Shown here one piece after another: positions 1 through 6,590 of a stretch of 6,590 nt of DNA. Source of the DNA: a virus (Duplodnaviria; Heunggongvirae; Uroviricota; Caudoviricetes). The translations under genes were made by a program, and so were the position numbers. Location of the stretch: IMG/VR virus record IMGVR_UViG_2654587711_000006; one strand, written 5' to 3'. The notes beneath the pieces are model-generated. The model was given only the letters and a program-made list of their open reading frames with translations, was not told where the DNA came from and ran no database searches. Positions within the stretch are counted from its first letter, which is position 1; each line of letters begins with the position of its first letter.

Positions 1-228
1 TCAATGTCGCGTAAAGGTAACTGTTACGACAACGCTCCGATGGAAAGCTTCTGGGGAACGCTGAAAAATGAGAGCCTGAGCCACTATCGTTTTAATAACC
101 GGGATGAAGCCATCTCAGTAATACGGGAATACATTGAGATTTTCTACAATCGTCAGCGTCGTCACTCTCGTCTGGGGAATATCTCCCCGGCAGCCTTCAG
201 GGAAAAATATCATCAGATGGCTGCTTAA
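1..228 (+). CDS. IS3-family transposase OrfB (DDE integrase), C-terminal fragment; 5' part is outside the window
   Basis: Translation ...SRKGNCYDNAPMESFWGTLKNE...YIEIFYNRQRRHSRLGNISPAAF matches the conserved C-terminal block of IS3-family OrfB proteins (GNCYDNA.ESFF..LK ... YNR.R.HS.LG..SP) as I recall them. The frame is open to the window edge. Confidence 0.8.
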   Translation, partial: SMSRKGNCYDNAPMESFWGTLKNESLSHYRFNNRDEAISVIREYIEIFYNRQRRHSRLGNISPAAFREKYHQMAA

Positions 229-1009: not shown

Positions 1010-1050
1010 CTGACAAAATCAATATAAACAGCCCCTCCGGAGAGGGGCTG
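1010..1050 (-). terminator. Rho-independent terminator for minus-strand (late-direction) transcription
   Basis: Perfect 9-bp GC-rich stem CAGCCCCTC/GAGGGGCTG with a 4-nt loop at 1029-1050, followed on the minus strand by the U-rich tract TGTTTATATTGATTTTG. On the plus strand no T-tract follows. Confidence 0.6.
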
Positions 1051-1441
1051 GAGAGTGGCGCTATGTGCCATTGCATGGTGCCGGGTGCCTCCCGGTGAAT
1101 TCAGTACCAGCACCTGAATCCGCGATTATCCCATATACCTACTCGCTGATTGCCCCTCCGCACAGGGGGATTCACCATGCCAGTTTCTTTTAACAAACTC
1201 CCCGCAAACCAGACAACAGTCAACCGCCTGAATTGTGAAGTATTTAAAAATTTCTCCCGCTAACTGATACCCGGCTAACAGTCTGGCGTTTTCTTTTTCA
1301 GCAACGGGAAAGCAACAACCACCACACCCGCCACCAGCACACCGTCAGCCAGCACTGACATTATCCGGCTGCTGCAATGCCATTCACAAAAACAGTAAGC
1401 AATCACTTTTTACCGTAACAGGTGATAATCCAGATATGTAT

Positions 1442-1795
1442 CTACCCCAGATGAGTAATCCGAAGTTCATCCATACCACAGGTCCTGGCTATTCTGTTGT
1501 ACTCCTGAACAAGAGCAAATAATTCTGAATTAGCAACCATGAACTCATCGCAAACCCTCTGTATAGCATCACTATTCAGAATAATAACGTCTCTTCCCGA
1601 AAGACGATCAGGAGTACAGAACAAAACTGTCAAACGGCTGAAGGCCTTTGCTCGTGCTGCATTGACTATATCAATACGCTGCCTAAGGATGAAACACCCC
1701 GACGCCTCATCAATATTCACTCTACCCACACCATATGAATGATAAATATTTAATGCTGAAAAAACCATTAGACCGTATAACAAACACTCAATCAA
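1442..1795 (-). CDS. Hypothetical protein (117 aa from TTG; about 108 aa from internal ATG near 1768), moron downstream of Q and tRNAs
   Basis: Longest ORF between the tRNA cluster and the 1010-1050 terminator, co-oriented with late transcription. No recognisable family, signal peptide or catalytic motif by eye. Confidence 0.45.
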   Translation of the reverse strand: MIECLLYGLMVFSALNIYHSYGVGRVNIDEASGCFILRQRIDIVNAARAKAFSRLTVLFCTPDRLSGRDVIILNSDAIQRVCDEFMVANSELFALVQEYNRIARTCGMDELRITHLG

Positions 1796-1905
1796 TACTT
1801 AACAGAACTTTTATTTTTGACAAACATAAAATATTTTCAACAATATCCTGAGCCAGGTATATTTCAGTATAAGGCTCTGCCGGAAGGAATCTGGAAGAAT
1901 GAATA

Positions 1906-2260: not shown

Positions 2261-3115
2261 TTATGACGAATTTACCACAGATTCCGGAAAAATCAACCTA
2301 GTTACCTTTTTTAACTGCCGCTCAGCCCATGCTTCTTCAATATCAAACCGAGTCACCAGCGCATCATAGAATTTCTTAACTGTTTTTTCCCATGACGCGC
2401 GTGTTATCTGGTTTGTCACCTCGCATATAGCATTAAATGCCTCCGTTGATGGTAGTCTTTCATAGCCACGACCACCACAACGCTGGCAGTCTCTGATAAC
2501 AGGCATACCACGTTTTACCGACTCTTCACGATGAATGGCGACACCACGCCCACGGCAATCCTTACAGGCGGTGGAAACCTCACCCTTTCCGCCACACTCC
2601 GGACAGGCAACTTTTACCACCTCCCTGACTTTTTTCCATTCTTCCCAGTAAGACGGATACACACCTTTCGTACACTTTGCCCATACCGGCGGCTTACCAT
2701 CCGGATACTGGATCTTGTTTGTAAAAACCTCGCTTTCAATAAATTTTTTTCCGTGACAGCAGGGGCACTGTTTTTTGCTCGCCGCGCTACGGGCATAATC
2801 TTCAAACGCATACGAAGCCATAATACGCATCACTGCCGGTTTTATTTCTGCCGGGAGTTTTCTTAACGCCGCCACGCGATCACACCGACTGAGTGCATAT
2901 TCTGTCAGCAATTCTGTTGCCCGCTCTCTGTCATTCATACTAATGCCCATTTTCCCAAGGAACGCAGAAACCCCCATCTCAGCCCGATTCTGTGTCATGC
3001 CCTGCGCGGCCATCACATCAGTGATACTCAGCGCATCTTTCGACGTTGAGGCCGATGCATCAGTCAGGCCGGGGGATTTTGGGGAGTAGTATTTCGGTAA
3101 ATCTTCCAGTTTCAT
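2261..3115 (-). CDS. Late-gene antitermination protein Q-like (284 aa) with DnaJ-type zinc-finger repeats
   Basis: Canonical position after rusA and before the late promoter, tR' and tRNAs. N-terminus MKLEDLPKYYSPKSP... resembles QuuQ/phage-82-type Q proteins as recalled. Contains CPCCHGKK, CPECGGKG, CKDCRGRG and CQRCGGRG (CxxCxGxG-like). Start overlaps the rusA stop (ATGA). Confidence 0.7.
   Translation of the reverse strand: MKLEDLPKYYSPKSPGLTDASASTSKDALSITDVMAAQGMTQNRAEMGVSAFLGKMGISMNDRERATELLTEYALSRCDRVAALRKLPAEIKPAVMRIMASYAFEDYARSAASKKQCPCCHGKKFIESEVFTNKIQYPDGKPPVWAKCTKGVYPSYWEEWKKVREVVKVACPECGGKGEVSTACKDCRGRGVAIHREESVKRGMPVIRDCQRCGGRGYERLPSTEAFNAICEVTNQITRASWEKTVKKFYDALVTRFDIEEAWAERQLKKVTRLIFPESVVNSS
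2262..2300 (-). promoter_or_regulatory. Candidate late promoter (pR'-like) overlapping the 3' end of the Q gene
   Basis: Minus strand has TTGATT (2296-2291), a 16-nt spacer, then TAAATT (2274-2269), placing the start near the Q stop codon and about 65 nt upstream of the tR'-like terminator. A qut site cannot be resolved by eye. Confidence 0.4.
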
Positions 3116-5026: not shown

Positions 5027-5060
5027 TGAAAATAAAAACAAAAACCCGCCGAAGCGGGTT
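5027..5060 (-). terminator. Rho-independent terminator at the 3' end of the hok mRNA
   Basis: Hairpin AACCCGC-CGAA-GCGGGTT (5043-5060) followed on the minus strand by TTTTTGTTTTTATTTT. Gives an mRNA of about 420 nt from the inferred 5' end, typical of hok mRNAs. Confidence 0.65.
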
Positions 5061-5128
5061 AAGTGTGGGTGCATTGAGGATGCCTGACCCATCAGAGGTG
5101 GCGAGGGATTTCTCCCCCGCCTGGTCTC

Positions 5129-5284
5129 TTACTCCTCAGGTTCGTAAGCTGTGAAGACAGCGACCTCCGTCTGGCCGGTTCGAATTCGTACCTCGCAGAG
5201 GTCTTTCCTCGTTACCAGTGCCGTCACTATGACGGTTAAACAGATGACGATCAGGGCGATTAACATCGCCTTTTGCTGCTTCAT
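5129..5284 (-). CDS. hokD: Hok-family membrane toxin (51 aa), HokD/RelF-like
   Basis: Translation MKQQKAMLIALIVICLTVIVTALVTRKDLCEVRIRTGQTEVAVFTAYEPEE matches HokD (RelF) of E. coli K-12 as I recall it: single TM helix and conserved C...C-E-(I/V)-R motif. The ORF-track entry 5129-5341 is an in-frame upstream extension. Confidence 0.8.
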   Translation of the reverse strand: MKQQKAMLIALIVICLTVIVTALVTRKDLCEVRIRTGQTEVAVFTAYEPEE

Positions 5285-5490
5285 AGCCTGCTTCTCCTTG
5301 CCTTTCGGCACGTAAGAGGCTAACCTAGATTTGCCGTTCATAGATTGAGCCTCAGATTAATGTTAAGCGTCTTGCCGGACGCGTAATGTTAACTGGGGCT
5401 TTTCTCTATCTGCCTTTTGGTGTTCATGCCTGAGACAGATAGCCTCAAGCACCCGCTGCAATTCTACTTAACTCTCCTTTTCCCGCAAAC
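5285..5490 (-). promoter_or_regulatory. hok mRNA leader with upstream promoter (mok-like frame, sok-target region)
   Basis: Minus-strand GCTTGAGGCTATCTGTCTCAGG..., ...AGCCCCAGTTAACATTA... and ...AGCCTCTTACGTGCCGAAAGGCAAGGAGAAGCAGGCTATGAAG parallel the plasmid R1 hok mRNA 5' end, leader and mok/hok start as recalled. TTTGCG/TAGAAT promoter-like hexamers just upstream (about 5487-5459). An intact sok antisense gene could not be delimited. Confidence 0.55.
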
Positions 5491-6293: not shown

Positions 6294-6590
6294 TGAGGTG
6301 TACTGGCAATAGCGGACACTACCATTTGTTCTTTTTTTAAGCAGCCATCTGATGATATTTTTCCCTGAAGGCTGCCGGGGAGATATTCCCCAGACGAGAG
6401 TGACGACGCGGACGATTGTAGAAAATCTCAATGTATTCCCGTATTACTGAGATGGCTTCATCCCGGTTATTAAAACGATAGTGGCTCAGGCTCTCATTTT
6501 TCAGCGTTCCCCAGAAGCTTTCCATCGGAGCGTTGTCGTAACAGTTACCTTTACGCGACATTGATGTTTTCAGACCAGACTGCTCCTGTA
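6294..6590 (-). mobile_element. IS3-family insertion sequence, right (3') end only, inverted relative to the copy at 1-271; body lies right of the window
   Basis: Reverse complement of 6294-6562 matches 4-271 with a single mismatch visible (CAG vs CCG in the transposase, Q to P). The terminal TGAGGTG... is the complement of the ...CACCTCA end. Confidence 0.8.
6337..6590 (-). CDS. IS3-family transposase OrfB, C-terminal fragment; continues beyond the window
   Basis: Same 74-aa C-terminal sequence as the left copy apart from one residue. The frame stays open upstream of the listed Met to the window edge. Confidence 0.8.
   Translation of the reverse strand, partial: QEQSGLKTSMSRKGNCYDNAPMESFWGTLKNESLSHYRFNNRDEAISVIREYIEIFYNRPRRHSRLGNISPAAFREKYHQMAA

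Follow-up and report, generated by a model that had tools for sequence, protein, structure and literature searches.

The stretch of DNA analysed here, IMG/VR virus record IMGVR_UViG_2654587711_000006 (6,590 nt, referred to in its whole length as the window), carries on its minus strand a fragment of a lambdoid prophage, in which a hok/sok locus, a DUF968 gene and rusA are followed by the gene of the antiterminator Q, a hairpin, tRNA genes and the interval that is the subject of this work (1050-1905). The initial annotation had described this interval as a slot of unrecognised cargo, equivalent to the one that holds the Shiga toxin genes in Stx phages. It had placed the tRNAs, Q and the hairpin correctly, as ARAGORN, Rfam, PF03589 and a terminator scan show, and the open reading frame (ORF) listing agrees with it on a 117-aa minus-strand ORF with a TTG start at 1442-1795 and on the lack of any ORF of at least 60 aa on either strand between 1050 and 1441. 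These last 390 nt are not empty, though, since two known elements lie there, a DUF3927 gene and an STnc100 RNA. Read along the minus strand, the features are:

2261-3115, minus: Q antiterminator gene, 284 aa (PF03589 Antiterm, E = 1.8e-53; PGAP 'antitermination protein' in E. coli 042)
2202-2221, minus: tR'-like intrinsic terminator, about 40 nt past the Q stop codon (7-bp stem with 5 GC pairs, then TTTTATTG; terminator scan)
2168-2196, minus: candidate sigma-70 tRNA promoter, TTGCGG-17 nt-TATTAT (aligns with the 'putative tRNA promoter' of VT2-Sakai)
2083-2158, minus: tRNA-Ile2 gene, anticodon CAU (ARAGORN; Rfam tRNA, 71.8 bits; PGAP tRNA-Ile in identical DNA)
about 1996-2075, minus: decayed remnant of a middle tRNA-Arg gene (alignment to VT2-Sakai; limits approximate)
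1906-1982, minus: tRNA-Arg gene, anticodon UCU (ARAGORN; Rfam tRNA, 68 bits)
1813-1840, minus: weak promoter-like site, TTGAAA-16 nt-AAAAAT, in the AT-rich spacer ahead of the 92-aa gene (consensus scan, 9/12 matches)
1721-1795, minus: non-conserved 25-codon N-terminal extension of the 117-aa ORF (alignment of relatives)
1442-1720, minus: gene for a 92-aa predicted cytoplasmic helical-hairpin protein, phrog_2873, the core of the 117-aa ORF (GTG start at 1720, TAG stop at 1442-1444)
1275-1406, minus: tciB-like gene for a 43-aa DUF3927 predicted single-pass membrane peptide (PF13064; phrog_1470; PGAP WP_000562553.1)
1020-1209, minus: STnc100-family small RNA gene, RF02076 (cmscan 132.4 bits against a gathering score of 47, E = 7.2e-30, model positions 1-206/206)
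1029-1050, minus: intrinsic terminator of the STnc100 RNA (9-bp stem with 7 GC pairs, then TTTATATTGA; terminator scan)

The order of tRNA promoter-like site, tRNA-Ile2, decayed tRNA-Arg, tRNA-Arg(UCU), 92-aa gene, tciB-like gene and STnc100 RNA forms what we call the cassette, which covers, on the minus strand, about 2197 to about 1025. The decayed tRNA-Arg was called by neither ARAGORN nor Rfam; both of its ends align with the first tRNA-Arg of VT2-Sakai and its middle has diverged. Judging from its sequence, the 2168-2196 site may act as a promoter, while a promoter at 1813-1840 would be speculative.

The 117-aa ORF contains a real gene, but the comparative data reduce its conserved coding part to 92 aa. 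Loss of the frame and stop codons in relatives, which the initial annotation had named as grounds for dismissing the ORF, affect its first 25 codons and spare the 92-aa core: the extension is out of frame in RM10042, a stop codon precedes the core in ETEC4079, and polymorphisms in these codons are 1 synonymous against 4 non-synonymous. The gene is therefore taken as 1442-1720, and 1721-1795 would most likely be a 5' untranslated region. Frames of at least 117 aa arise in 4.3%, and frames of at least 92 aa in 21%, of dinucleotide shuffles of 1050-1905, and the window holds longer antisense ORFs that are clearly spurious. It is only the comparative evidence, and not length, that gives this ORF its status as a gene.

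Three diverged E. coli lineages of the gene were compared: the window type, a type linked to an AraC-family regulator (loci L002 and L005) and the ETEC4079 type (L006). All three have a GTG start (VNIDE/VNIDD...), exactly 92 codons and no indels at an amino-acid identity of 59-63%. Between them, the Nei-Gojobori ratio of non-synonymous to synonymous substitutions (dN/dS) is 0.26-0.27 in the frame of the ORF and 0.8-1.25 in the two alternative frames; codons differ at their third position about twice as often as at the first or second. The off-frame values of about 1 argue against an overlapping RNA structure or an opposite-strand gene as the cause of this conservation. None of 79 full-length, near-identical alleles, taken from viral contigs and from genomes, is disrupted, and within the cassette variation is lowest in this gene (3.9 variable sites per 100 nt) and highest in the spacer upstream of it (11.8 per 100 nt). 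The substitutions are those of a genuine coding sequence kept by purifying selection. Of 5426 complete E. coli genomes, 1314 (24%) carry the gene, and its exact product is already in NCBI as a hypothetical protein of Enterobacteriaceae; the ETEC4079 homologue is annotated by PGAP as the 92-aa protein WP_001017777.1.

If the ORF were instead a chance open frame in an AT-rich spacer, and the interval non-coding save for tciB and the small RNA, this would agree with its GTG or TTG start and weak Shine-Dalgarno sequence, with the 4-21% of shuffles that yield such lengths, and with PGAP annotating nothing at this place in E. coli 042, in E2348/69 or, among the matches listed, in copies of at least 98.9% identity. 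Chance would have to account, however, for a dN/dS of 0.26 in its own frame only, an exact length kept at such divergence, same-length homologues in five other genera, 0 of 79 alleles disrupted and a confidently predicted AlphaFold2 fold. We find it hardly credible, and the reading that there is no gene here is effectively excluded.

The protein had been said to have no recognisable family, which holds for Pfam and NCBIfam and does not hold for PHROG, where residues 10-117 of the 117-aa ORF match the full profile of phrog_2873 (positions 1-108/108) with E = 3.8e-70. Phrog_4827 is a distant match, and distant members of the family also match phrog_2873 with E values between 1e-11 and 1e-21. An exhaustive HMMER search of 1.84 billion representative proteins returned only 22 relatives, and a profile search about 40 clusters, all of 91-110 aa and all named hypothetical; scanning genome contigs with a narrow alignment of the family gave only 3 loci in species representatives. 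The family is restricted to Enterobacterales (E. coli, Shigella, Citrobacter, Salmonella, Morganella, Serratia and Xenorhabdus); the homologues in the five other genera have 20-43% identity, the same length and the same genomic position. The window protein resembles members of phrog_2873 and phrog_4827 in its length (about 92-100 aa) and in its post-Q position in the late region of Enterobacterales prophages; a difference is seen in Sb55 of Salmonella phage ST64B, of the phrog_4827 type, which sits after Rz and a KilA-N protein and not before the holin. The AlphaFold2 model (pLDDT 85, pTM 0.71) consists of two long helices, at residues 3-35 and 50-81, with a short beta-hairpin between them; this hairpin bears the most conserved motif, TPDR..SG..V.ILN. 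Because the N-terminus (MNIDEASG...) is acidic and not a signal peptide, the protein is predicted to be cytoplasmic.

Next to this gene lies the tciB-like gene, whose 43-aa product matches PF13064 with 95.6 bits (cut-off 25; E = 1.7e-27; residues 2-43 against profile positions 7-53) and phrog_1470, described as 'TciB-like', with E = 7.8e-13. Its hydrophobic segment (residues 15-36) is followed by KKK, and the 19-residue window 18-36 has a mean Kyte-Doolittle value of 2.47. The peptide resembles TciB of phage P1 in these Pfam and PHROG matches, in being a small, predicted single-pass membrane peptide and in being encoded beside phage tRNA genes, as is the case in P1, JLK-2012 and the Citrobacter prophage. 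P1 itself has tciA-tciB-tciC between tRNA genes in the C1-controlled ban operon. Unlike the P1 cluster, the window has neither a TerB-like TciA nor a TciC, and no TerB-like ORF was seen among its ORFs; TciA occurs in Citrobacter, P1 and JLK-2012, and pairing with it is a trait of the P1 cluster and not of the Pfam family. The Cys-rich N-terminus (CFCEWHC) also sets the window peptide apart from P1 TciB. A CRISPR interference screen found tciA, tciB and tciC of P1 to be non-essential (PMC10695390). Functions of the P1 Tci proteins are assigned only 'by homology', and the literature found on the function of DUF3927/TciB consists of annotation. By analogy, the window peptide would probably be an accessory peptide of the P1 Tci type, dispensable and located in the inner membrane.

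The 92-aa and tciB-like genes are frequent neighbours, but they are not an obligate pair, since each is found without the other: 813R8, JLK-2012 and P1 have TciB and no 92-aa gene, and ETEC4079, Morganella, Serratia and Salmonella have the 92-aa gene and no TciB. In the AraC-linked lineage the region corresponding to tciB gave no DUF3927 match, and a Citrobacter prophage has a P1-like tciA-tciB pair after its homologue of the 92-aa gene. P1 Upl, whose gene lies just before tciA, was considered as a homologue of the 92-aa protein and rejected, as the family hidden Markov model found no match among the ORFs of the P1, JLK-2012, VT2-Sakai and 813R8 loci. One tciB allele, present in three IMG/VR loci, has a stop at codon 8, and an internal ATG at codon 16 would yield the 28-aa form annotated by PGAP in E2348/69; for this reason it is uncertain where the peptide truly starts.

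The third element of the interval is the STnc100 RNA. A hairpin is indeed present at 1029-1050, where a strong late terminator had been described, but it coincides with the terminal hairpin of the Rfam STnc100 model and is the RNA's own intrinsic terminator. Fourteen copies from the loci studied have a common closing helix and three hairpins; RNAalifold predicts 27 pairs in them, of which 9 are changed on both sides with pairing kept. The minimum free energy of the window copy is -69.2 kcal/mol (z = -2.9, single sequence). Just upstream of the RNA a TTTGTTAAAA motif is conserved, a candidate -10 element on the basis of its sequence, and the stretch between closing helix and terminator is hypervariable across the 14 copies.

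STnc100 RNAs have been described in other strains. Eleven copies are transcribed in EDL933 grown in LB, one of them confirmed by Northern blot (PMC5331693), and STnc100 overlaps with EcOnc27/sRNA103, an RNA that binds Hfq and lies directly downstream of stx2B (PMC12711010; PMC12370729). PasD1 and PasD2 of enteropathogenic E. coli (EPEC) are structural relatives of STnc100, with shared ancestry reported (bioRxiv 10.64898/2026.05.13.724894). The window RNA resembles the EcOnc27 family in its full-length match, the same closing helix, three internal hairpins and a terminator, and it resembles the STnc100 of VT2-Sakai in its place at the 3' end of the post-Q cargo, before the lysis region. It differs from other copies in the stretch from closing helix to terminator, likely the seed, which is specific to the window copy. 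By analogy with EcOnc27 and PasD, it is probably an Hfq-dependent trans-acting regulator. Identity with PasD itself was rejected, as PasD1 and PasD2 lie in other prophages (PP4, PP2) and neither the PasD Northern probe sequence nor the UGUGAG seed is present in the window copy.

Other loci carry several copies of STnc100, with four in tandem at 3637-4616 of L005 in addition to the one at 1666-1878, five copies in L007 and two in L004. The tandem arrays, of at most four units in succession, precede a nanS-p-type esterase gene, and STnc100 is also found after each separate cargo gene. The copies keep a conserved core, and the pre-terminator stretch is different in each, like a scaffold with interchangeable seeds. 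On the strand opposite STnc100 (window about 1065-1190 plus; L001 9466-9591), PGAP reports, both for E. coli 042 and for E2348/69, a partial pseudogene named 'hypothetical protein', which is probably spurious.

Comparison with VT2-Sakai relates the interval to the slot of the Shiga toxin genes. The order in VT2-Sakai is Q, pR', qut, tR', tRNA-Ile, tRNA-Arg, tRNA-Arg, a terminator, stx2A, stx2B, STnc100 (208 bits), the antisense AsxR and nanS-p. Two of these segments are common to the window: the tRNA block (window 2198-1898, 86.6% identity over 305 nt), which includes the putative tRNA promoter, and the STnc100 element (1238-1072, 71% identity). Between them lie 659 nt in the window against the 1368 nt of stx2AB in Sakai, so that the positional analogy with the stx slot drawn in the initial annotation is borne out. 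The terminator that follows the tRNAs in VT2-Sakai is absent in the window; transcripts from the tRNA promoter could therefore run into the 92-aa gene. The content of the slot varies between prophages, as was seen in VT2-Sakai, 813R8, JLK-2012, RM10042 and mEp460.

Some prophages carry genes for small proteins with a TolA C-terminal domain in this slot (PF06519, E = 1e-14 to 1e-23; L005 1130-1558; L013 4888-5316 and 5467-5862), which could be decoys for colicins or filamentous phages that use TolA. RM10042 has such a gene followed by its own STnc100 copy. In the AraC-linked lineage the 92-aa gene comes directly after the gene of a 241-aa AraC-family regulator (L002 164-889; L005 2255-2980), and this pair is found in 80 of 5426 complete genomes, mostly of Shiga toxin-producing E. 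coli negative for the locus of enterocyte effacement (O91, O113:H21, O22:H8, O43).

The same slot, the same strand and a presumed control by Q are what the interval has in common with stx2AB, and they might suggest that its cargo is a toxin or virulence effector, released on prophage induction in the manner of Stx. The products do not agree with this. The 92-aa protein has an acidic N-terminus and no signal peptide, the 43-aa peptide is one membrane-spanning segment only, and searches of Pfam, NCBIfam, PHROG, PDB and PADLOC found no toxin, effector or defence family, nor a solved structure that matches. In contrast to AB5 toxins of the Shiga type, neither an A-subunit RNA N-glycosidase nor a B subunit was matched in Pfam, NCBIfam and PDB, and a helical hairpin is predicted. 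In addition, the 1314 genomes that carry the cassette include environmental, commensal, extraintestinal pathogenic, EPEC and enteroaggregative strains, with no association to a pathotype. A toxin is very improbable on this evidence, and the toxin-like part of the initial reading is effectively excluded.

The cassette keeps its composition in different surroundings. Across 80 IMG/VR contigs the order tRNA-Ile2, tRNA-Arg, ORF92, TciB, STnc100 is constant wherever the contig reaches, two of the 80 giving no tRNA-Arg match. The backbone around it varies, with either a PF03589 Q or a DUF1133 Q and a methyltransferase upstream, and iraM/DUF1737, genes for TolA C-terminal-domain proteins or a SASA esterase downstream. 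Homology to other loci breaks at 2197/2198 in 15 loci, at 1072 in 16 and at 1024-1026 in 4; the first of these is the left edge of the cassette, at the tRNA promoter, and 1072 is where the conserved core of STnc100 has its edge. In mEp460_ev081, a viable phage, the block is present with 98.6% identity. These loci show that the block moves as a unit between prophage backbones.

The cassette thus has much in common with known lambdoid morons. It is set between conserved late-regulatory and lysis genes in a fixed position and is absent from close relatives, it has its own terminator at the end, and its G+C content, 0.33-0.43 across 1400-1900 (0.33 in the spacer, 0.40-0.43 in the 92-aa gene), is lower than that of the adjacent Q gene (0.45-0.53). 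The morons of the post-Q slot are stx1 and stx2 (bor and lom, elsewhere in lambda, may be compared by extension), and the tRNA and STnc100 flanks are those of stx2AB. The difference from the stx morons is that there is no toxin and that tRNAs, two small proteins and a small RNA stand in one unit. As for the promoter of its own that a moron has, the window shows a clear terminator and consensus-like putative promoters only. We demonstrated that all three elements of the interval are real and conserved and that the block is bounded by sequences common with Stx phages. The anatomy of the cassette we regard as very likely correct, and the reading of the interval as the protein- and RNA-coding part of a compact, mobile, moron-type cassette in the post-Q slot of a lambdoid prophage, the slot of stx2AB, has in our estimate a probability of about 0.6.

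Several observations weigh against this reading. The tRNA promoter candidate fits 8 of 12 consensus positions, and promoter-like sites in the scan are not more numerous than expected from shuffled sequence. The Shine-Dalgarno sequence before the GTG is weak in the window lineage, poor in the AraC-linked lineage and good only in ETEC4079; among the matches listed, no PGAP feature lies under any of 36 matches at an identity of at least 98.9%; and no expression data were found for the window copy of the 92-aa gene, tciB or STnc100. The clustered breakpoints probably reflect a few recombination events inherited by many contigs. Neither Pfam, NCBIfam, PADLOC nor PDB sequences gave a match to the 92-aa protein (best PDB profile E = 0.66), and Foldseek returned only generic helical hairpins, the best with E = 0.29 in PDB and 0.32 in BFVD. 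Finally, several genera have a homologue directly upstream of the holin, which fits a role in lysis as well as it fits a moron.

This last point concerns the neighbourhoods of the family. In every genus the gene is found after Q (or after Q and an N6 methyltransferase), before the holin/endolysin genes and on the same strand as these. The Citrobacter locus has tRNA-Thr and then, in this order, ORF95, TerB/TciA, DUF3927/TciB, holin_8, holin_3_7 and an M15 peptidase; Salmonella Kottbus has DUF1133 Q, ORF6N, tRNA-Thr, tRNA-Gly, ORF95, pRha, holins and GH108; Morganella has Q, a methyltransferase, (tRNA-Asn), ORF96, holin and lysozyme, the gene lying 248 nt from the holin; and Serratia has Q, tRNAs, ORF99, a holin-like gene and lysozyme. 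Sublineage members of 91 aa and 34% identity are also present on plasmid-like contigs (L014-L016, 4001-4276) with a Rep3 replication gene. They adjoin a K88-like fimbrial operon (PapB, usher); a tRNA-Thr gene precedes them by 580 nt, and the contigs have no lysis genes.

The position in Morganella, Serratia and Salmonella Kottbus, directly upstream of holin or endolysin genes on the same strand, and in Citrobacter with tciAB between, could mean that the 92-aa protein regulates the timing of lysis by acting on the holin, the late promoter expressing it just ahead of the lysis cassette. RIII of phage T4, a cytoplasmic antiholin, offers an analogy, the protein is small, soluble and predicted to be a helical hairpin, and Sb55, the distant relative in ST64B, also adjoins lysis genes. 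The neighbouring holins, however, represent at least three families that are unrelated (class II; Phage_holin_2_1; Phage_holin_8 with 3_7), which counts against such a role because a holin-specific binding partner should co-vary with the holin. Moreover, tciB, an intrinsic terminator, iraM in convergent orientation and other cargo stand between gene and holin in E. coli, the plasmid-like contigs that carry copies have no lysis genes at all, and phage 813R8, a close prophage with the same holin, lacks the gene. We consider a function in lysis timing improbable.

The most constant neighbour of the gene is an upstream tRNA gene, although the identity of this tRNA varies (Ile2, Arg, Thr, Gly, Asn). 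One or more tRNA genes lie about 100 nt to 2.3 kb upstream in E. coli, Citrobacter, Salmonella, Serratia, one Morganella locus and a plasmid-like contig, and the tRNA-ORF92 block is inherited as a unit. Protein and tRNAs might therefore form a counter-defence module, in which, for example, the protein would inhibit an anticodon nuclease or tRNase colicin while the tRNAs replace the cleaved host species. Nearby cargo frequently has a protective or anti-restriction character (DNA methyltransferase, TolA C-terminal-domain proteins, TerB/TciA), and small single-domain helical proteins are typical of anti-defence factors. A module of this kind is nonetheless at odds with the inconstant tRNA identity and with three lineages that have no tRNA nearby (Morganella L018, ETEC4079 and ST64B). 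Clusters of tRNA genes follow Q in many lambdoid phages with or without the 92-aa gene, as in VT2-Sakai and JLK-2012, and so the linkage may be only positional. Searches with PADLOC, PDB and Foldseek also gave no similarity to known immunity or anti-defence proteins, and we hold the module to be quite unlikely.

Under the moron-type reading, expression of the cassette would depend on the state of the prophage. During lytic growth, RNA polymerase modified by Q would start from pR', pass tR', transcribe the cassette, read past its terminator and go on towards the lysis genes, and in the lysogen the tRNA promoter could possibly read into the 92-aa and tciB genes. The small RNA would be made from its own promoter and end at its own terminator. 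For the 92-aa product we tentatively propose a soluble helical-hairpin protein that binds another protein and may serve host modulation or counter-defence, not virion assembly or lysis, a proposal to be taken as possible more than probable. Two further, linked ideas are unlikely, in our view: the protein would be a widespread phage accessory factor, overlooked by annotation pipelines, with a shared tRNA-linked function, such as neutralising a tRNA-targeting defence or a tRNase colicin, and the tRNA block and STnc100 core would serve as recombination joints for swapping post-Q cargo. Its tight inheritance with phage tRNA genes in six genera, and even on plasmids, could speak for the tRNA-linked function. 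The cargo exchanged in this way would include stx2AB, TolA-domain decoys, AraC-like regulators and the 92-aa cassette, and STnc100 would be a fixed scaffold with a hypervariable seed, sometimes in four or five tandem copies.

Of the three elements, the small RNA and the membrane peptide come from described families (STnc100 and DUF3927/TciB) and the 92-aa protein from a catalogued and uncharacterised PHROG, and the architecture is that of a lambdoid moron in a well-known post-Q slot; current concepts are unchanged by it. What may be of use is the corrected gene model, the annotation gap and the cassette boundaries common with Stx phages. The gap concerns a gene under purifying selection in about one quarter of complete E. 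coli genomes, which pangenome and prophage studies do not see because it is unannotated in every one of the near-identical RefSeq copies inspected. The breakpoints that recur just ahead of the tRNA promoter and at the border of the STnc100 core suggest sites of cargo exchange, with a bearing on the rise of new Stx-converting phages. The 92-aa protein and TciB are small, dispensable-looking candidates for screening, and mEp460 is a viable phage for such work.

Near-identical DNA to the window is present in many E. coli chromosomes, and in E. coli 042 the order annotated by PGAP is Q, tRNA-Ile, tRNA-Arg, DUF3927 protein, IraM (on the other strand), a DUF1737 fragment, holin, lysozyme and Rz. Next to the cassette, the window carries a further gene:

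659-994, plus: iraM, anti-adaptor protein IraM (NCBIfam NF007393, 162 bits against a cut-off of 121; PGAP in E. coli 042)

This is a separate neighbouring cargo gene, convergent with the cassette. The IraM anti-adaptor stabilises RpoS, and because iraM is convergent with the late operon, Q-dependent late transcription would cross it in antisense. The DUF1737 gene is truncated at about position 269 by a copy of an insertion sequence (IS). An inverted repeat with arms of 271 nt, reported as 100% complementary, lies at 1-271 and 6294-6564, each arm being the end of an IS3-family element and holding the 3' end of an IS3-family transposase ORF (4-228 plus and 6337-6561 minus). The 6-kb prophage fragment is thus bracketed by two inward-facing ends of the same IS. 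The hok/sok type I toxin-antitoxin locus is complete (5129-5454, minus), with a Hok ORF (PF01848, E = 3e-23) and a sok RNA of 112 bits against a gathering score of 59, and downstream of it an isrK-like match below threshold is found at 5039-5120 (25.7 bits against a gathering score of 50).

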